A program made the translations under genes and the position numbers. Source: Armatimonadota bacterium (GTDB taxonomy: Bacteria > Armatimonadota > Hebobacteria > GCA-020354555 > CP070648). Taken from it: a stretch of DNA of 64,000 bases. Location: contig DATLAK010000084.1 of the NCBI GenBank assembly GCA_035527535.1, positions 9,413-73,412 of the forward strand. The letters run 5' to 3'. Below the pieces are notes generated by a model. It was not told the origin of the DNA and searched no databases. It saw nothing but the letters and a program-made list of their open reading frames with translations. This document shows positions 49,483 to 58,743 of this stretch, in pieces. Numbering within the stretch: position 1 is the stretch's first letter; each line of letters opens with the position of its first letter.

Positions 49483-50307
49483 ATGTCCGACGCCCGCACC
49501 ATAGCGATCATCGGCACCGGCCGCATGGGCACGGCGCTGGCGAGCGGCCTCATCGCCACCGGCGCCGCCGCCGCCTCGATTCGCGCCTTCGATCACGACC
49601 CGGCGCGCCTGCGCGCCGTCGAGGGCCTGGGCTTGACCCCGTGCGCCGACACGGCGGCAGCGGCCGCCGGGGCGGCCCTGATCGTGATCGCGGTCAAGCC
49701 GGCGGACGTCCCCGCCGCGCTCGCGCAAGTCGCTCCCTCCCTCACTGCTGCAACCCAGACGGTGCTGTCGCTCGCCGCGGGGGTCACGACGCGGGCGCTG
49801 CGCGCGGCGCTGCCGCGGGACTGCCCGGCGGGGGTGGTACGGGCGATGCCCAACACGCCCTGCGTGGTGGGCGAGGGGATGGCGGTGATCGCCGCGGACA
49901 GCCCCGCGTCGGCGAAGGGCATCGCCGCCGCGCGAGAGGTGCTGGCGGCGGTGGGGCGGGTCATCGAGCTGCCGGAGGCGCTGCTCGACGCCGCCACCGG
50001 GCTCTCGGGGAGCGGTCCGGCCTATGCCTTCGTCTTCATGCAGGCTTTGGCTGACGGCGGAGTTGCGGCCGGGCTGCCGCGGGTGGTGGCGATCGAGCTG
50101 GCGGCGCAGACGGTGCTGGGAGCGGCGCGCATGGTGCTGGCGGGAGAGGGGCACCCCGAGCAGCTCAAGGACGCGGTGATGTCGCCCGCGGGCACCACCG
50201 CCGCCGGCGTCGCCGCCCTCGAGGCGCGCGGGCTGCGCGCGGCGGCGATGGAGGCGGTCGTCGCCGCCTGGCGCCGCGCGCGCGAGTTGGGAGCAGAGGA
50301 CCCGTGA
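49483..50307 (+). CDS. proC: pyrroline-5-carboxylate reductase
   Basis: IAIIGTGRMG Rossmann, C-terminal dimerisation domain SPAGTT. Confidence 0.85.
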   Translation: MSDARTIAIIGTGRMGTALASGLIATGAAAASIRAFDHDPARLRAVEGLGLTPCADTAAAAAGAALIVIAVKPADVPAALAQVAPSLTAATQTVLSLAAGVTTRALRAALPRDCPAGVVRAMPNTPCVVGEGMAVIAADSPASAKGIAAAREVLAAVGRVIELPEALLDAATGLSGSGPAYAFVFMQALADGGVAAGLPRVVAIELAAQTVLGAARMVLAGEGHPEQLKDAVMSPAGTTAAGVAALEARGLRAAAMEAVVAAWRRARELGAEDP

Positions 50308-50594
50308 CCCCGGCGCAGATCGGCGTGAACATGCAAGTGATATCGCTCATCCACATGGCCTTCTGGCTGCTGCAGCTGCTGGTGTTGGCGCGAGTGATCA
50401 TTTCCTGGATCCGGGTAGATGCCCGGCATCCGCTGGTGCGCCTTATCCACGACCTGACCGAGCCCATGCTGCGGCCCTTGCGCTCGATGCTGCGCGTGCA
50501 GAGCATGGGGCTCGACTTCTCGCCCATCGTTCTCTTGCTCCTATTGTGGGTCGCGGAGCGGATAATCGTCAATCTGGTGGCAGGAGCGTTCTAG
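50304..50594 (+). CDS. yggT: YggT-family membrane protein
   Basis: ~90 aa, two TM helices, VIISWI motif. Confidence 0.65.
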   Translation: MTPAQIGVNMQVISLIHMAFWLLQLLVLARVIISWIRVDARHPLVRLIHDLTEPMLRPLRSMLRVQSMGLDFSPIVLLLLLWVAERIIVNLVAGAF

Positions 50595-50608
50595 TGGTCA
50601 ACGACATC

Positions 50609-51073
50609 ATGCCCATTGACATCGTCAACCAGAAGTTCCGCCAGGGTCTGCGGGGGTACGTGCAGACCGAGGTGGACGACTTCATGGGGCGAGTGGCGGA
50701 CGCATACGGCAAGGCGTTGGAGGAGAACGACCGCCTGAAGCAGCAACTGGAGAAGGCGGAGCGGGAGCTGCGCCAGTATCGGGATACGGAGGAGATGATC
50801 AAGAGCGCGCTGGTGCTGGCGGAAAAGACGGCGGACGAGGCGCGCAGTCGCGCGCAGGACAAGGCGAGCCTGATGGTGCGCGAGGCCGAGCAGCAGGCGC
50901 GCGAGACGCTGGCGGCGGCCCGGCGCGACGCGGAGGGCATAGCGCGCGAGGTGGAGGAGCTGCGACGCGAGCGAGCCCGCTTCGAGGCCGAGTTCCGGGG
51001 GCTGCTGGAGACCTACCTCCACCTGCTGGCGGGCGGCTCGCGCGCCGAAACGGTACCGGATCAGTCATGCTAG
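50609..51073 (+). CDS. divIVA: DivIVA-domain protein
   Basis: MPIDIVNQKFRQGLRGY N-terminal DivIVA motif plus a coiled-coil. Confidence 0.75.
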   Translation: MPIDIVNQKFRQGLRGYVQTEVDDFMGRVADAYGKALEENDRLKQQLEKAERELRQYRDTEEMIKSALVLAEKTADEARSRAQDKASLMVREAEQQARETLAAARRDAEGIAREVEELRRERARFEAEFRGLLETYLHLLAGGSRAETVPDQSC

Positions 51074-52518
51074 CGAGCGAGGAGCCGAGACCGCAACCGC
51101 AGCCGGCCCCGCAGGGAGACTCGCGGGGCCGTATCGCAGCAGCGGTGGTGCTGCTGGGGTTGGCGGCGCTGGGGCTGACCGCCGAGGTCGTGGTGTCCAC
51201 CGCCACCGACGCCGGCCGCGCCCAGATGCGCACCCACCAGGCGCGCATGGATCTCTTCCAGGGCCGGGTGGTGCTGGGGCTGACCTACTACCTGGAGGGC
51301 CTTGAGTCCGACCGGTCGTTTGCCCTGCGGCAGCGCAAGGCGGCGGGGCGCTTCGCGCGCATGGGCGTCCAGAGTGCGGCGGCGTACTTCCAGCGGGCGG
51401 CGCAGGGGCTCCAGGACCCGCAGGAGCATACCGCCGCCATCGCCTCGGCGGCGGCGCTCTATGCCCACGGCGGCGATACCATGCGCGCGCTGCGGGTGCT
51501 TCAGGGGTCACTGGACATCGGCCGTCGCGACGTCCTGTCGCTGCTGGCTCAACTCTACGCCAACAACCGGCTCACGCAGGAATGGCTGGTCAGCGAAGCG
51601 GCGGCGTGGATACCGCAGCGGGTGCCGGCGCACCTGCTGATCGAATCGCAGATCGCGGTCAGCGGCGGCCGCGTGCAGCGGGACCTCGAGCTGCGCCGGA
51701 GCATGTTCGAGGCGGGGGTGCGGCTGGTCAAGCGGGTGGGGGCGTTGATGGCAGGCTTCATCGCGCTCATGCTGCTGGGGGTCGGGGTGCTGCTGTGGGG
51801 AATCCTGCGGCGGGCCGGCTTCGGCCCCTACCACGGCCTGCCCGAACGCCCCTGGGGGGCGTGGGCGGGCCTGGAGCTGGTGGGGGCGTGGCTGGTGCTG
51901 AGCACGCTCGTGGCAGGGGGCACTCTTGCGTTCGCGCGTCGCCTGGGCACGACGGGCGTCATCGCCGCCATCTTGGCCTCATACATCGCGGCCTCGGTGC
52001 TTGCCCTGTGGTGGTTTGCCGCGGCGGTGGCGCCGCCGGGCACGGGCCTGCGCACCGCCGGCTGGCGCCGCCTGTCGGTGGCCAAGAGCATCGCCCACGG
52101 CATCGGCGCCTACGCTGCGGCCCTGCCGCTGGCCATGGCGGCGGTCGTCGTTGCCAGTCGCCTGCTGCCCGCGCCGCCCGTCAACCTGCTGGTGGCCGAG
52201 ATGACCCGGGCGCATGGGCTGGCGGCGCGCGCGCTGCTGCTGGTGCTGCTGTGCGTGGCCGCGCCGGTGGTGGAGGAGACGGTGTTCCGCGGAGCCCTCT
52301 ACGGCGGCATGCGCAAGCGCTGGACGATGCCGGTGGCGGCGCTGGCGAGCGCGGTGGTGTTCGCGCTCGTGCACCTCAACTGGGTGAGCTTCGTGCCGGT
52401 GCTGGTGCTCGGGGTGGCGCTGTGCGTGGTTTACGAGCGCACGGGGTCGCTGCTGCCGGGGATGGTCGCGCACGGCCTTTTCAACTTCGCTACCGCGGTC
52501 GCGCTATTCCTGCTCTAG
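51067..52518 (+). CDS. CPBP-family intramembrane metalloprotease (CAAX protease) with long N-terminal extension
   Basis: EETVFRGALYG (EExxxR), FALVHL, HGLFNF motifs in C-terminal TM helices. Confidence 0.7.
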   Translation: MLASEEPRPQPQPAPQGDSRGRIAAAVVLLGLAALGLTAEVVVSTATDAGRAQMRTHQARMDLFQGRVVLGLTYYLEGLESDRSFALRQRKAAGRFARMGVQSAAAYFQRAAQGLQDPQEHTAAIASAAALYAHGGDTMRALRVLQGSLDIGRRDVLSLLAQLYANNRLTQEWLVSEAAAWIPQRVPAHLLIESQIAVSGGRVQRDLELRRSMFEAGVRLVKRVGALMAGFIALMLLGVGVLLWGILRRAGFGPYHGLPERPWGAWAGLELVGAWLVLSTLVAGGTLAFARRLGTTGVIAAILASYIAASVLALWWFAAAVAPPGTGLRTAGWRRLSVAKSIAHGIGAYAAALPLAMAAVVVASRLLPAPPVNLLVAEMTRAHGLAARALLLVLLCVAAPVVEETVFRGALYGGMRKRWTMPVAALASAVVFALVHLNWVSFVPVLVLGVALCVVYERTGSLLPGMVAHGLFNFATAVALFLL

Positions 52519-52547
52519 GGGCGCGACTTCGCTGAAGTCGCGGTTGT

Positions 52548-52574
52548 CTCGCCCCGACCGGTCGGGGCGCCCGT
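52548..52574. repeat. REP-B CTCGCCCCGACCGGTCGGGGCGCCCGT (second exact copy), preceded by hairpin CGCGACTTCGCTGAAGTCGCG
   Basis: Exact 27-mer shared with 44897-44923. Confidence 0.65.
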
Positions 52575-52577
52575 GAG

Positions 52578-52889
52578 GTGGGCGACTTGCGCAAGAAAAC
52601 GGAAAGCACGGGAGGCCCGGTGACCCTGCGCGTGCGCGTGCGCCCGCGGGCGGCGGCCGATGCTATCGAGGCCGACGTCGCGGCGCGAGAGGTGATCGTG
52701 TCGGTCACCGCGCCGGCGGTCGAGGGCAAGGCCAACCGCGCGATGCTGGCGCAGATCGCCGAGCACCTGGGGGTCGCGCGGTCGTCACTGCACATCGTGT
52801 CGGGGGAGAAATCGCGGCGCAAGGCCGTGCGCGTCCACGGCCTGGGCGAGGCGGAGGTGTGGCGGCGGCTGGGAGGCGGACGAGAGTAG
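52578..52889 (+). CDS. DUF167 (YggU) family protein
   Basis: VRVRPRA...EGKANRAMLAQIAEHLGVARSSLHIVSGEKSRRKAV. Confidence 0.65.
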   Translation: MGDLRKKTESTGGPVTLRVRVRPRAAADAIEADVAAREVIVSVTAPAVEGKANRAMLAQIAEHLGVARSSLHIVSGEKSRRKAVRVHGLGEAEVWRRLGGGRE

Positions 52890-53005: not shown

Positions 53006-53905
53006 GTGCACCATGGGAGACCGCTGGCGATGAACTTGAGAATCGGCGATGGTCGCGACTGGGCCTTTGTCAACGGCGCGTGGAGCGAAGACGCGGCAGG
53101 GCGGATTGACTGCCCGACCACCCCTGACAACCACGCCCTGGCGTTCCATCTGCCGCAGGCGTTCGCGGACGCGACCGTGGGGTTCGAGTTCCTGGCGAGC
53201 TATCGCGAGACCGGCGCCGGCGATGTCGGGGTCATCCTGCGCGCGCGGGGCGCCAATGACTACTATTGGGTCAGCTTCCCGTGGTGCGCGCAGCAGGCGC
53301 GCGCCAAACACTTCTGGGCGGCGATCTCGAGGGTTGACTCCTCGGGCTACGTCCGCAACCTCAAGCTGGCGATCATACCGGGGGTGCCGAGCGAGACCGA
53401 ACGCTGGTACCAGGCGCGGGTGGAGTGCGCGGGCGCGACGATTCGCGTGTGGGTCGAGGGCCGCCCGGGACCGGTGGTGAGCGACATCACGGCGGGCGCG
53501 GGGCGCATCGGCTTCGCCGGGTATGGGGGCTTCGCGCTGCGCAACCTGCGCGTCAGCGGCGATGCGGCGCCGGCACCCGCATGGGACGAGACCGCCCCGA
53601 CCGGTCGGGGCAACTGGTTTCATCCCGCGCCGGGCGCCAACGGGGGGCAGAGCATGCCCTCGCTGTGCCGCACGCCCGGGGGCGATCTCCTGCTGGCGAT
53701 CCCGACGGTGGAGACCGATCAGACTTTCGTGGTGCGGTCGCGCGACCACGGACGCTCTTGGGGGCAACCGCAGGAGCTGCCAGCGGCGTTGAATGGCGGC
53801 ATCGTGCACGCGACCAAGAGCGGTCGGCTGGTGCTGCAGGTGGTCCACGCTGGGCCCCGCCGTATCCTAATGGCGGAATCGCAAGATGACGGGCGCACCT
53901 ACTGA
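53006..53905 (+). pseudogene. BNR/Asp-box repeat protein, apparently 3'-truncated (ends ...SQDDGRTY*)
   Basis: Asp-boxes SRDHGRSW and SQDDGRTY, with the stop directly after the latter. The 3' end overlaps the first copy of the tandem duplication. Confidence 0.4.
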
Positions 53906-55470
53906 AACATCGTCTGCTTCACCTGCGGCGGCAGCTGCGAGGAGAAGTCCAGCAGGTGCCGCCGCAGTATCGGCGCTTCCGCTGGGTCAACCGCATAGAA
54001 GGTGACGGTGTCGCCGGCGCAGATCAGGTTAACCGGTATGCGCCACTTGCCCACCATCACCCACTCGCGGGGCAGGCCGCCGAAGGGCGTGAACCATCCC
54101 CGGTAGGCGATGGCGACCTTGACTCCCTTGGCGCGCGCCAACCGGCGGATGGTTGCGGTGTCATAGGTCCGGCTCAGGCGCGCGGCTGCTACCTCCGGGG
54201 TGCCCAGCCCCCACAAGTCCAGCAGCTTGATGTCCGCCAGGTAATCCACGGCTCCGATATCGTTGGCCGCGACCGCCTCCCCTTGATAGTACTGCCGGTA
54301 GAACCGACCCATCTGGTACTGCTGTTGATAAATGTTCGCGACGGTGATATGCGTGACGGTGATCGTGTACAGCCCGTGTTGTCCGATCGGCATGAGCAGC
54401 AGCGCCCCGGTCGCCGCCAGCGCCGCCCGCAGGCGGGCGCGGTCCGACAGCCTGGTGGAACGCAGCGCCGCGAACACGGAAACGGCGAGTGCATAGATCC
54501 CCAAGGTGGCGAGGTAGGCGTCGTAGCGGAGCAACCCCGCCTTTGCCAGCAGCACCTGCATCCCCAAGACGACCAGGAATACCAGGAGCGCCAACTGCTC
54601 CCTCCGCCATATGCCGCGTCTCCTCAGCAGGCCGTAGCCGAACAGCAGCGCGCAAGGGACTGCCACTTGCCACACGCGGGATTGCGCCGCCAGCTCCAGC
54701 CCCTTCATCTCCCCCGCCAAGCCCAAGCAGGCGCTCTTGAGCAGCACCGAGTTGGGCAGCCAGCGGCCACCATGGGCGATCGCGACCACCCCGTAGGCCG
54801 CCAACGGAACCGCCGCCAGGCCTGCCAGCGCGATCGCCAGCGCCCACCTTCGCCGCAGCAGGAACAGCGGCATCACCGCCGCGATCAGGAATAGTCCCTC
54901 ATAGCGGATGGCGGTGATCAGGGGAGTCAGCGCCAACATGAGCACTGCGTTGGTGCGCGGCTGGTCCTGGCGAGTGAGCGCCTGGATGCAGAGGCAAACG
55001 AAGGCCAGGTCCACCGACGCCTGCAGCACGTGCTCCATGCCCGTGAACACCAGCCACGGCAGCGGCACGAAGATAATCAGCTCTACCAGTACCAGCAGGA
55101 TATAGACGCTTGGCAACTGGGCGCGCTTCAGCAGGAGGAACATCAGGCCGACCAGCAGTGTCGCGAAGACGATGTTGAGCGCAAGCGGCACGATCTCGCT
55201 CGGCCCTACCAGCAGATAGGGAAGGGCTACCAGCAGCGGCCACAACAGCGAGGACTGCGAGGAGCTGAAGCCATATTTCGTGACCCCCAAGACGCCATCC
55301 TGCACCAGGTGCTTGGCCAGCGCCATGTGGATATAGGCGTCATCCAGGCCGTACACCACGCGCCCGCCGGTCACGGACAGGGAGCGCTCAAGGATCACCG
55401 CCAGGTTCCACCATAGGAACGCTATGGCGACCACCAGCGGCCAGTTTTCGCGCACCCACTTCAACCGCAC
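53899..55470 (-). CDS. polytopic membrane protein (~10 TM, putative GT-C-fold glycosyltransferase-like), paralog 1
   Basis: 523 aa. YGLDDAYIHM in the first extracytoplasmic loop. Soluble C-terminal domain. Confidence 0.6.
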   Translation of the reverse strand: MRLKWVRENWPLVVAIAFLWWNLAVILERSLSVTGGRVVYGLDDAYIHMALAKHLVQDGVLGVTKYGFSSSQSSLLWPLLVALPYLLVGPSEIVPLALNIVFATLLVGLMFLLLKRAQLPSVYILLVLVELIIFVPLPWLVFTGMEHVLQASVDLAFVCLCIQALTRQDQPRTNAVLMLALTPLITAIRYEGLFLIAAVMPLFLLRRRWALAIALAGLAAVPLAAYGVVAIAHGGRWLPNSVLLKSACLGLAGEMKGLELAAQSRVWQVAVPCALLFGYGLLRRRGIWRREQLALLVFLVVLGMQVLLAKAGLLRYDAYLATLGIYALAVSVFAALRSTRLSDRARLRAALAATGALLLMPIGQHGLYTITVTHITVANIYQQQYQMGRFYRQYYQGEAVAANDIGAVDYLADIKLLDLWGLGTPEVAAARLSRTYDTATIRRLARAKGVKVAIAYRGWFTPFGGLPREWVMVGKWRIPVNLICAGDTVTFYAVDPAEAPILRRHLLDFSSQLPPQVKQTMFQ

Positions 55471-55660
55471 TTACCCCCGGCCGCGTCTCAGGCGATCCCG
55501 CGAGGGTTGGGTCCCGCCTCCATACCAAGGGTCACCATCGCTCAGCGGTTCCCGGTATGGGACTCCTTGTGCTTGTTCGCCCTCGCAAAGCCCTCCCCTT
55601 CCATCAGGTCCCTGGCTGATGGGGGACGGCGGTCTGCAACCCGGGCCGTAATCACGGGAC

Positions 55661-57232
55661 CTACTGAAAAACCAACTGCTCCACCTGCGGCGGCAGTTCC
55701 GAGGAGAAGTCCAGCAGGTGCCGGCGTAACATCGGCGCTTCCGAGGGGTCAACCGCATAAAAAGTGACGATCTCCTCGGCGCAGATGACGTTGGCCGGTA
55801 TGCGCCACTTGCCCACCATCACCCACTCGCGGGGCAGACCGCCGAAGCGCGTGAACCATGTCCAGTAGACCACGGCGACGTTGACTCCCTTGGCGCGCGC
55901 CAACCGGCGGATGGTCGCGGTGTTGTAGGTCCGATTCAGGCGCGCGGTCGTGACCTCCGTGTTCGCCAGCCCCCACAGGTCCAACAGTTTGGTGTCCGCC
56001 AGGAAGCTCACGGCGCCGATGTCATTGGCCGCGACCGCCTGCCCCTGATAGTACTGCCGGTAGAACCGACCCATCTGGTACTGCTGTTGGTAGATGTCCG
56101 CGACGGTCACGTGCGATAGGATCATGGTGGACAAGCCCCATTGGCCGGGACGCAGGGCCAGCAGCACCCCCATGGCCAGCAATGCCGCCCGGACGCGGGT
56201 TGCCTCCGAAATGCTGATGGAACGCAGCGCCGCGAACACGGAAACGGCGAGTGCATAGAGGCCCAGGGCGACGAGATAGGCGTCGTAGCGGGATAACCCC
56301 ACCTTTGCCAGCAGGGCCTGCATCGCGAAGACGAGCAGGAAAATCAGGACCGCCAACTGCTCCGTTTGCCATATGCCGCGCCTCGCCCGCAGGCCCCAAA
56401 GGTATAGGAGCACGCAGGGCACCACCAGATACCATAGGCGGGAGCGCGCCGCCAGCGTCAGCCCCCCGACCTCCCCCGGCAAGTCCAAGTACGCGCTCTT
56501 GAGCAGCACCGAATTGGGCAACCAGTAACCGCCGTGGCTGATCGCGACCACCCCGTAGGCAGCCAAGGGGGCCGCCGCCAGGCCTGCCAGTGCAATCGCC
56601 AGCGCGAAGCGGCGGCGCAGCAGGAACAGCAGGATCGCCGCCGCGATCAGGAACAGCCCCTCGTAGCGGATCCCGGTTATCAGGGGAGTCAGCGCCAGCA
56701 TGAGCACTGCGTTGGCGCGCGGCTGCTCTTGGCGGGTGAGCGCCTGGATGCAGAGATAAACGAAGGCCAGGTCCATCACCGCCTGCAGCAGGTGCTCCAT
56801 GCCTGTGAACGCCAGCCACGGCACCGGCAGGAACACGATCAGCTCCGCCAGCACCAGCAGGATGAAGGCGTTCGGCAGCCCCGCGCGCTTCAGCAGGAGG
56901 AACATCAGGGCCACCAGCAGCGTCCCGAAGACGATGTTGAACGCGAGGGGCACGATCTCGCTCGGCCCCACCAGCAGATAGGGAAGGGCCAGCAGCAGCG
57001 GCCACAACAGCGAGGACTGGGACGAACTGAAGCCGTACTTGGTGACGCCCCAGATGCCATCTTGCGCCAGGTGCCTGGCCACCGCCATGTGGATGTAGGC
57101 GTCATCCAGGCCGTAGACCAGGCTCCCGCCGGTCACAGACAGCGACTGATGGAGGATCACCCCCAGGCTCAGCCACAGCAGCGCTATGGCGACCACCAGC
57201 GGCCAGTTCTCGCGCACCCACCTCAATCGCAC
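55661..57232 (-). CDS. polytopic membrane protein, paralog 2 (tandem duplicate)
   Basis: Same length. Roughly 85-90% identical at the amino-acid level by eye across the full protein, including ~50 bp of upstream sequence. Confidence 0.6.
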   Translation of the reverse strand: MRLRWVRENWPLVVAIALLWLSLGVILHQSLSVTGGSLVYGLDDAYIHMAVARHLAQDGIWGVTKYGFSSSQSSLLWPLLLALPYLLVGPSEIVPLAFNIVFGTLLVALMFLLLKRAGLPNAFILLVLAELIVFLPVPWLAFTGMEHLLQAVMDLAFVYLCIQALTRQEQPRANAVLMLALTPLITGIRYEGLFLIAAAILLFLLRRRFALAIALAGLAAAPLAAYGVVAISHGGYWLPNSVLLKSAYLDLPGEVGGLTLAARSRLWYLVVPCVLLYLWGLRARRGIWQTEQLAVLIFLLVFAMQALLAKVGLSRYDAYLVALGLYALAVSVFAALRSISISEATRVRAALLAMGVLLALRPGQWGLSTMILSHVTVADIYQQQYQMGRFYRQYYQGQAVAANDIGAVSFLADTKLLDLWGLANTEVTTARLNRTYNTATIRRLARAKGVNVAVVYWTWFTRFGGLPREWVMVGKWRIPANVICAEEIVTFYAVDPSEAPMLRRHLLDFSSELPPQVEQLVFQ

Positions 57233-57342
57233 GCACCCCCGGCCGCGTCTCAGGCGGCCCCGCGAGCGTTTCCGCCTGCCCGCTCACATCCTGATCTTGG
57301 CGGCCGCGGCTCCGCCACCCCCTGGCGCCGCCGGCCGCCCCC

Positions 57343-58743
57343 TTACGCCGCGGTGACGACGGCGATGTCGTTGAAGCGACAGAAGCTCTCGAGGGCGGCG
57401 GCGACCTCGGGGTCGTGGATGAGCACGCCGTGGTGGATGATGCCGTGCTCCACCATCTTGCGCTCCCAGTCCATGACGTCGCCGACCTGCACCCAGCCGT
57501 AGGACCCCCGCGTGAAGGGCTCGATCGCTACCACCTCGCCGCGACCGATGAACATCGTGAACTCGCCGTCGTATTCCACCAGGCGCATGCAGGTCACGGG
57601 CCCCGGCTTCATGCGGAACTCGACGGTGCCGTGGGAGGGCTTGACCGGCAGGATGCTGTGATCGCGCAGCGCCGGAGCGCAGCCGCTCTCGCACAGACTG
57701 GTCGGGCAGTTGCCGCAGTGCCAGGCGAGCCACACGTTGTCGCGCTCGGGGTGGAGCTCGGTCCAGTCAATGAAGTGCGGCGCCACGCGGTCGAGGGCGG
57801 CGGTGTAGGCGGCCCACATGCTGACTGCGCCGTACATGTCCACCTCGCACGCGCACGGAAGGCCCTTGTCGGTGAGGCGGCCCAGCACCCCGCACACCGA
57901 TACCCCCAGCCGCTCCTGCACCCGCGTCCAGCAGTTGACTCCCAGCGCGACCAGCTCCTTCTCCCGCGCCAGTTGCTCCAGGGCCAGCTCGACGCGCGCC
58001 ATGTTGGTGAGCGCCTCCGGCGGCGCGTCGCAAGGGCCGAGGGCGCGCTTGAGCTTGCGCACGAGCGCCACCGTCTGCCTCGCGTTGGCGGGGATCGCCT
58101 CCGCCCGCGACCATGCCTCGTCGAGGTCCACCGGCACGATGGTCTGGTGGAAGCGCTTTTGCAGCGACGCCTCGTCCCACCACACCGACTCGAATTCCTC
58201 CGGCCGCGCGCCGATCTGGCCGAAGCGCGCGCCGTGGAACGCCTGGTGGGCCGCGCACGCGCGCGCGAAGCGAGCGGCGTGCTCGGCGAACACCGGCTCC
58301 TCGGGAAAGCACGTGGGGATATGCTCGTACTTGATGCCGCGGCGCTTCATGGCGGAGGTCAGCATGAACTGCCCGCACCACGAGTCGGAGGCCCGCAGGC
58401 CGTCCGCGCCGATGGGCGCTCCCTTGGCTGCGAAGTGCAGCACCGGTGTGCCCGGCGCCATGCCCGCAATCACGACTCCCACGGCCGAGGTCTCGTGGCC
58501 GAAGGTCATGCCGCCGACGATGACGCCAGCGACCCCCTGCGCGCGGAAGAGAGCGAGCGTCTTGCGCCCTTCCTCGATGTTACTCACCAGGCCGTCGGCG
58601 GTCAGCTCCGGGCTGGGCGCGACCAACTCGAGCCCGGGGGTCTTGCGCAGCGCGGCGGCGCAGCGCCGCCGCATCTGCGCCCCCCACTTGCGGCTGAACG
58701 GGTCGCGGTGGGAGGGAATGAATCCGATCTTGACCTTGCGCAT
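57343..58743 (-). CDS. L-fucose/L-arabinose isomerase family protein
   Basis: KIGFIPSHRDPFS N-terminal isomerase domain pattern. Start at MRKVKIG with a GGGAGA RBS. The Arg-rich 165-aa extension upstream was rejected. Confidence 0.55.
   Translation of the reverse strand: MRKVKIGFIPSHRDPFSRKWGAQMRRRCAAALRKTPGLELVAPSPELTADGLVSNIEEGRKTLALFRAQGVAGVIVGGMTFGHETSAVGVVIAGMAPGTPVLHFAAKGAPIGADGLRASDSWCGQFMLTSAMKRRGIKYEHIPTCFPEEPVFAEHAARFARACAAHQAFHGARFGQIGARPEEFESVWWDEASLQKRFHQTIVPVDLDEAWSRAEAIPANARQTVALVRKLKRALGPCDAPPEALTNMARVELALEQLAREKELVALGVNCWTRVQERLGVSVCGVLGRLTDKGLPCACEVDMYGAVSMWAAYTAALDRVAPHFIDWTELHPERDNVWLAWHCGNCPTSLCESGCAPALRDHSILPVKPSHGTVEFRMKPGPVTCMRLVEYDGEFTMFIGRGEVVAIEPFTRGSYGWVQVGDVMDWERKMVEHGIIHHGVLIHDPEVAAALESFCRFNDIAVVTAA

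Follow-up and report, generated by a model that had tools for sequence, protein, structure and literature searches.

Tandem paralogs of a predicted GT-C glycosyltransferase beside a truncated DUF1080/BNR gene in an Armatimonadota genome

We analysed a stretch of 64,000 nucleotides (nt) from an Armatimonadota bacterium (contig DATLAK010000084.1, positions 9,413 to 73,412; hereafter the window) in which two membrane-protein genes of equal length lie in tandem between a gene for an L-fucose/arabinose-isomerase-like protein (FucI-like) and the convergent, truncated gene of a DUF1080/BNR-repeat protein that is sialidase-like. The copy on the BNR side is termed W1 and the copy on the FucI side W2 (Table 1). 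Our analysis indicates that W1 and W2 are probably two functional GT-C glycosyltransferase paralogs that stem from an old duplication, that their array was later reshuffled, and that the deletion in the BNR gene may have been coupled to the loss of a copy. An earlier sequence-only reading had described the pair as a recent tandem duplication that truncated the BNR gene. The tandem duplication and the truncation both held up in our analysis, but the duplication is neither recent nor responsible for the truncation.

Both genes were found as open reading frames (ORFs) of 523 amino acids (aa), as had been reported, and they lie in a constant register of 1762 nt with zero indels according to a repeat finder and an ungapped comparison, in line with the claimed tandem duplication of a membrane-protein gene. 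The similarity starts at 53897 and 55659 and fades approximately 40 nt upstream of the start codons. W1 and W2 are identical at 83.3% of their DNA positions, at 76.7% of third codon positions and at 402 of 523 residues (77%), which is lower than the 85-90% protein identity that had been estimated by eye. The Nei-Gojobori method gave a synonymous divergence (dS) of 0.33, a nonsynonymous divergence (dN) of 0.14 and a dN/dS of 0.43. The longest exact run that the two copies have in common is 44 nt, and the sequence shared at the unit borders amounts to just 10-15 nt. Upstream of the genes, the common stretch measures approximately 37-40 nt with 32/37 positions identical (W1 compared with 57233-57269), rather than the 50 bp of identical sequence that had been supposed; in W1, this box contains GGGGG, a likely ribosome-binding site.

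At the other end of the units, the 11-mer ACCTACTGAAA is present at both 53897 and 55659, and the shared ACCTACTGAA consists mainly of the conserved last codons and the stop, with 2 nt only beyond the stop. A 10-mer had been pointed out at this end of both units. It is indeed common to them, but 8 of its nt are conserved C-terminal codons and stop, and alone it is no marker of the boundary.

Both paralogs look functional from their sequences. Of the 81 positions with at least 90% conservation in the family, W1 keeps 79 and W2 77, and the differences between the two track the variability of the family, falling on 40% of the least conserved columns and on 5% of the most conserved ones. Subfunctionalisation of the pair is possible. 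The suggestion that the paralogs diverged mainly at loop positions is ruled out: divergence is lowest in the extracytoplasmic loops (17%) and rises through the C-terminal domain (23%) and the transmembrane (TM) segments (25%) to the cytoplasmic loops (31%).

For comparison, we used the contig L004 (JGI 3300048656) of a sister lineage, which has the same gene neighbourhood as the window. Its flanking proteins are 91-99% identical to those of the window, and the flanks of the two lineages are about 95% identical; the FucI-like gene served as a conserved flank and as the baseline of divergence (98.5% protein identity, dS 0.064). L004 also carries two tandem copies, but its BNR gene encodes 538 aa. 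W1 is most similar to the L004 copy on the FucI side (L004-A; 91.7% DNA and 88% protein identity) and W2 to the L004 copy on the BNR side (L004-B; 95.1% DNA and 94.5% protein identity), whereas every cross-type pair among the four copies shows 83-87% DNA identity. Among the two-state informative sites of the four copies, 124 support a grouping by type, compared with 5 for a grouping by genome and 6 for one by position. A neighbour-joining tree that included the next relatives (P0004 and P0005, which are 58-60% identical and occur as single copies in other contexts) gave the topology ((W1,L4A),(W2,L4B)), in which the split between the A type and the B type falls inside this clade and before the split between the window and L004. 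Because the A/B split precedes the split of the two lineages, the duplication is old relative to both of them. In a recent segmental duplication the copies would be almost identical, dS would be low and close relatives would lack the pair; the DNA identity and dS found here, and the presence of both types in L004, do not fit this picture.

The two types occur in opposite order. In the sense of transcription, the window has FucI, B, A and the convergent shortened BNR gene, and L004 has FucI, A, B and the convergent BNR gene. In a four-way alignment, the bases just upstream of the genes go with the type. The diagnostic bases of the B type are found both in the approximately 85 nt next to W2 and in the sequence upstream of L004 gene B. 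Within the intergenic region that separates W2 from the FucI-like gene, the FucI-adjacent part is orthologous to the L004 FucI-A intergenic region (IGR1). We considered three other causes of the order swap. Gene conversion cannot exchange the identities of two copies, an inversion would flip the strand, and a misassembly is unlikely given the short sequence shared at the borders and the length of the longest exact repeat. Scans of genome and metagenome collections did not turn up another close relative that shares the synteny; the nearest of the remaining homologues reach at most 60% identity, and their genomic contexts are unrelated.

The spacer between the two L004 copies records the extent of the duplicated unit. 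Its first 70 nt match the antisense BNR 3′ end at 94% identity, and a degenerate copy of the FucI stop codon and of IGR1 comes next. The duplicated unit therefore spanned the region from the FucI stop to approximately 70 nt inside the BNR 3′ end, and the sequence-only reading was correct in letting it reach the BNR stop. When a tandem duplication has its breakpoint within a gene, one end of the array retains the whole gene and the junction receives a partial copy. Because the L004 spacer holds the 70-nt copy while the BNR gene beside it is intact, the unit overlapped the BNR 3′ end without harming it.

Two gene-conversion tracts are visible in L004 (7995-11358): the B copy is A-like at nt 541-660, and the A copy is B-like over its end, starting at nt 1381 and reaching the stop. 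This latter tract probably continues into the 70-nt BNR relic, and such a continuation would account for the 94% identity of the relic to the BNR 3′ end. The L004 spacer also contains an insertion of 25-27 nt (TTGCTTGTTCGACTGCGCTCAACGCAA, L004:9740-9766) with complementary ends TTGC...GCAA that is not found in the other three copies of the upstream region. The inter-copy spacer of the window showed no similarity above shuffled sequence to the BNR 3′ end, to the FucI end or IGR1, or to the L004 spacer (181/500 and 111/500 shuffles scored as well, compared with 0/500 for the positive control). It has no second copy in the window, no Rfam match and a fold z-score of -1.15 that is not significant, and a promoter and terminator scan gave nothing over the shuffled background.

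The window BNR protein has a complete DUF1080 domain (Pfam PF06439, residues 19-183), followed by a BNR_2 match (PF13088) on residues 217-298 that covers positions 53-149 of the 277 profile positions only, so about 2 of 6 propeller blades are left. A complete BNR_2 beta-propeller after DUF1080 would be expected to give a protein of about 520-560 aa or longer, and the window protein falls short of this. Among its best 120 homologues, all have at least 498 aa. Its abrupt end at ...SQDDGRTY had been interpreted as a truncation, and the comparison bears this out: the L004 orthologue is 88% identical over the first 299 aa and then continues from ...DDGRTWSEL... to a final ...DRTY, and the relative P0121 likewise ends in ...DRTY. 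The window ORF aligns without gaps to the L004 orthologue for 897 nt, after which ...GACGGGCGCACCT jumps to ACTGA. The junction reads GACGGGCGCACCTACTGA in the window, and the corresponding L004 sequences are GACGGGCGCACCTGGTCT at the internal site and GACCGTACCTACTGA at the 3′ end. Relative to L004, the window has lost exactly 717 nt, corresponding to 239 codons, in frame and with the final Tyr codon and the stop kept; the endpoints share ACCT/CGCACCT microhomology.

Because the changes in the BNR remnant are balanced between the lineages (19 window-specific and 21 L004-specific, with P0121 as the outgroup), the deletion is recent. It is lineage-specific and separate from the original duplication; L004 has both copies together with an intact BNR gene. 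Of the two observations that would have spoken against the sequence-only reading, one was made and the other was not: the two diverged copies are ancient and occur in both lineages, whereas the BNR end of the window is not ancient. No pseudogene-like acceleration of the remnant was seen in the window lineage, either in these counts or in dN/dS, which is 0.36 for the BNR remnant and 0.33 for the intact domain. What is left is a DUF1080-only remnant that probably lacks sialidase-like function.

P0121 itself is an intact DUF1080+BNR protein of 530 aa that is approximately 80% identical to the truncated protein of the window (L165:10001-15691; also L166 and L167). Its gene adjoins a GH38 alpha-mannosidase gene on another contig of the same samples (ERZ27256827, JGI 3300031566), and either an intact paralogue within one genome or the gene of a co-occurring relative is possible. 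Over 100 nt (53506-53605), the window BNR gene is 98% identical to the distant relative P0121 and only 94% identical to the L004 orthologue; this patch could represent a short conversion or recombination.

An AlphaFold2 (AF2) model of W1 was built on 67 homologues, and the same alignment was used for the invariant residues. The model (pLDDT 95.4, pTM 0.94) is similar in three dimensions to solved GT-C structures. In a Foldseek search against the PDB, it retrieved ArnT first (E 3e-5, TM-scores 0.52/0.51), followed by PglB, STT3, AftB, AftA and DPY19, the top matches having E-values of 3e-5 to 1e-3 and TM-scores of approximately 0.5. The AF2 helices, together with family-averaged hydropathy and counts of lysine and arginine, suggest 11 TM helices, rather than the approximately 10 counted by the sequence-only reading, with the N-terminus inside and the C-terminus outside; on the same hydropathy and charge counts, the hydrophobic helix 76-88 would be juxtamembrane and not cross the membrane. 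The C-terminal alpha/beta domain of approximately 160 aa (about 362-523) is predicted to lie outside, as are all invariant polar positions, including GMEH, RYEG and R315. The motif YGLDDAYIHM in the first loop, with the two aspartates that had been pointed out, occurs in both W1 and W2. D43 and D44 are invariant in the 67 homologues, down to 37% identity, and lie in the loop after TM1, which is outside by the positive-inside pattern; their catalytic role is putative. The further invariant residues include Y46, I47, G144, R189, R315, Q383, Q386, D404, D418, W470 and W476.

GT-C proteins are defined as integral membrane proteins with 7-13 TM helices and a catalytic Asp that is usually located after TM1 (PMC11127046). 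Because the predicted number of helices and the position of the conserved aspartates match this definition, the model supports the view that W1 and W2 are integral-membrane proteins of the GT-C fold, and the resemblance to GT-C enzymes noted at the outset is upheld. At the sequence level, W1 and W2 have zero Pfam or NCBIfam matches at E <= 1, and this includes the models of named GT-C families (PMT, PMT_2, STT3, Arabinose_trans, GtrII and others). A scan of the 67 homologues returned one weak GtrII match (PF14264, 6.5e-5), no match to any other GT-C model and otherwise noise, and a search of PDB sequences with the family profile gave no relevant match. By analogy with ArnT, PMT, Aft and PglB, W1 and W2 most likely take a sugar from a polyprenyl-phosphate-linked donor and pass it to a glycan, lipid or protein of the envelope at the outer face of the membrane. 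The UbiA, GT2 and polysaccharide genes found near homologues elsewhere are indirect evidence for such a donor.

In the history that we favour, one gene was duplicated in tandem well before the window and L004 split, in a unit that also took in the FucI stop, the adjoining intergenic region and approximately 70 nt of the BNR 3′ end, and the BNR gene came through this event intact. We infer that the array later held at least three copies (three or four) and that the loss of different copies in each lineage led to the opposite A/B order, which is the simplest kind of account for the swap. If the L004 order is ancestral, the segment A-J-B, where J is the L004 inter-copy spacer, would have been duplicated first. 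The intergenic region would then have recombined with the copy of it that the spacer holds, so that the first A was lost, and the last B would have gone in a deletion with one end at the BNR-stop relic downstream of A and the other at the CGCACCT site in the BNR gene. These three steps reproduce the arrangement of the window, its truncated BNR gene included. On this account, the deletion that took the last 239 BNR codons would also have removed the BNR-adjacent copy.

Several points weigh against this interpretation. A plain 717-nt deletion inside the BNR gene would yield an identical junction. The step with at least three copies was reconstructed from two arrangements, with no outgroup of the same synteny to set the direction, and the L004 evidence comes from a single contig. 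The 148-nt spacer of the window is not accounted for by a simple duplication junction. On the functional side, the proteins have no sequence-level link to any named GT-C family except for the one weak GtrII homologue, and no polyprenyl-phosphate-sugar synthase or flippase gene adjoins the pair in the window.

The alternative that fares best assumes two unrelated events, a simple 717-nt deletion in the BNR gene, whose neighbour was always of the A type, and a separate permutation of the paralogs (or a rearrangement in L004). We regard it as a serious contender, albeit the less probable account. The loss of exactly 717 nt fits this alternative, as does a junction for which the two ACCT sites within the BNR gene are sufficient; a recent deletion is indicated by the lack of decay in the remnant, and the unique spacer is unlike a fresh duplication junction. 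Even so, the order swap would still need an intermediate of at least three copies or an equivalent, so more events are required than with a coupled loss, and the BNR-stop relic that L004 retains downstream of A (GACCGTACCTACTGA) offers the same microhomology for the larger deletion.

The reading of the pair as glycosyltransferases has its own competitor, in which the proteins have a GT-C-like fold but are no glycosyltransferases and act as a non-catalytic scaffold like PIG-U/GAB1, as a polymerase or ligase, or as a transporter. We consider this unlikely. It is highly improbable that a recent tandem duplication cut the BNR gene at its breakpoint. The BNR gene is truly truncated and its ORF does end within the 10-mer common to both units, but the copies differ at 17% of their nucleotides, and L004 has both types beside the intact gene; a tandem duplication spares one copy of the gene at its breakpoint, as the 70-nt relic shows. 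Finally, because the same W1/W2/BNR arrangement was seen in each of five independent assemblies of two projects (ENA, L001-L003; JGI, L168-L169) and the W1 and W2 proteins appear with later starts as adjacent entries of an Armatimonadota metagenome-assembled genome at NCBI (HUT74347.1 and HUT74348.1, both labelled 'hypothetical protein'), the pair is real and its host is an Armatimonadota population. The concern that it might be an assembly artefact, such as a chimera or a repeat that was collapsed or expanded, can be dismissed almost entirely: the window is metagenome-assembled and repeats are error-prone, but copies that are 83% identical with no longer exact run than the one given above are distinguishable by assemblers.

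The coordinates of the locus are compiled in Table 1. The BNR ORF converges on W1 and overlaps its stop by 7 nt. The start codons of the paralogs are ambiguous (55459-55475 and 57221-57237, minus strand): GTG is the first codon of the ORFs, but TTG at codon 3, which sits 9 nt downstream of the GGGGG run, is a more likely start. Three different starts appear in the gene calls of PGAP and JGI, giving 518, 521 or 523 aa. Upstream of the pair (49483-52889), the window contains proC and genes for a YggT-family protein, a DivIVA-domain protein, a large CPBP (Rce1-like) membrane protease and a DUF167 protein. This cluster of the cell-division/ylm type is conserved with L004, and SepF and YggS-like genes follow further on in the L001 gene calls.

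Table 1. Features of the paralog locus (window coordinates).
Feature	Position	Strand	Remarks
Truncated DUF1080 (3-keto-disaccharide hydrolase-like) + BNR/sialidase-like gene	53006..53905	+	299 aa; 291 aa if the start is M9 (53030)
Deletion junction in the BNR gene	53894..53905	+	CGCACCT microhomology, then the final TAC codon of the original gene and its TGA stop
GT-C paralog W1 (A type, predicted), BNR side	53899..55470	-	ORF, 523 aa from GTG; the true start may be TTG, codon 3
Conserved proximal upstream box of W1	55471..55510	-	Common to W2 and both L004 copies (four-way alignment)
Unique inter-copy spacer	55511..55658	none	148 nt
GT-C paralog W2 (B type, predicted), FucI side	55661..57232	-	ORF, 523 aa
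Intergenic region, FucI-like gene to W2	57233..57342	-	Alignments with L004
L-fucose/arabinose-isomerase-like gene (FucI-like)	57343..58743	-	466 aa; Pfam PF02952

The family to which W1 and W2 belong comprises 3,561 clusters at 50% identity with E <= 1e-30 and 9,324 with E <= 1e-3. It occurs in many bacterial phyla and in some archaea, with members in Acidobacteriota, Bacteroidota, Chloroflexota, Armatimonadota, Pseudomonadota (e.g., a Legionella and a Bradyrhizobium) and Archaea. Tandem pairs are rare: among about 160 loci, they were found only in this clade and in L005. The L005 pair (L005:101-3344; GCA_964519055.1, CAZFLC010000034.1) is independent and consists of P0009 (529 aa) and P0008 (521 aa), which are 74% identical to each other and about 51% identical to the window genes; Lgt and pseudouridine synthase genes follow. 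The genes that neighbour family members in other lineages include Acyl_transf_3 (approximately 36 loci), Wzy_C (19), UbiA of the DPPR-synthase type (11), NAD-epimerase (9), GT4 (7) and GT2 (5), given as raw counts that are not corrected for phylogenetic relatedness. These neighbours hint at pathways for pentofuranose or O-acetylated glycans. Wzy_C is O-antigen-ligase-like, and DUF362 and GMC oxidoreductase genes also adjoin members in other phyla (L089, L087, L132, L038 and others).

Taken alone, the duplication is unremarkable. The family, with its thousands of predicted GT-C enzymes, is without a Pfam or NCBIfam model and is annotated as 'hypothetical protein' only, and the confident fold assignment and the list of invariant residues make the family testable and could improve the annotation of envelope-glycan pathways. 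We tentatively propose, with somewhat more doubt than conviction, that W1 and W2 represent a very large, unnamed and uncharacterised GT-C family of Bacteria and Archaea with its own motifs (DDxYIH, GMEH, RYEG) and its own C-terminal extracytoplasmic domain, which could found a new CAZy family, and that the locus is a fast-evolving hotspot of surface-glycan diversification, with copy gain and loss, conversion and permutation within about 5% genomic divergence and with one loss that destroyed a sialidase-like gene. As a clean bacterial case of a tandem paralog array undergoing reshuffling, the locus combines a flank relic, conversion tracts, permuted order and a collateral microhomology deletion.

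Among known enzymes, the best structural match is ArnT, which reportedly has 13 TM helices, compared with the 11 predicted here. ArnT is the undecaprenyl-phosphate-L-Ara4N:lipid A transferase of family GT83 (PDB 5F15/5EZM); its sequence identity to the paralogs is only approximately 10-14%, and the paralogs differ from it in having no PMT/PMT_2 or other Pfam match and in carrying the motifs DDxYIH, GMEH, RYEG, NIYQQQYQM, NDIG and LDLWGL, which are specific to their family. In comparison with the protein O-mannosyltransferases Pmt1/2/4 (GT39), the mycobacterial arabinofuranosyltransferases AftA/AftB and STT3/PglB/AglB (GT66), the paralogs lack an MIR domain, a carbohydrate-binding module, a WWDYG-type domain and detectable sequence homology. 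A functional parallel may lie in the three-component systems of the Gtr type and GT136 that modify periplasmic glycans, in which a GT-C enzyme works with a flippase on a polyprenyl-phosphate sugar supplied by a GT2 or UbiA-type synthase, such as the UbiA-type polyprenyl-phosphoribose synthase (PMC11127046). Unlike in these systems, the window pair has no adjoining synthase or flippase gene; like them, family members adjoin UbiA-type genes in 11 of the approximately 160 loci and often have Acyl_transf_3 and Wzy_C genes nearby, and one member has the weak GtrII match.

For the reshuffling, the nearest precedent is tandem duplication with random loss (TDRL), a model of gene-order change that comes from mitochondrial and other organelle genomes. 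In contrast to TDRL cases, the permuted genes here are mutual paralogs on a bacterial chromosome, and no intermediate with three or four copies was observed. As in TDRL, two adjacent genes on the same strand have exchanged places without an inversion, and one lineage has kept a relic of the duplicated flank.

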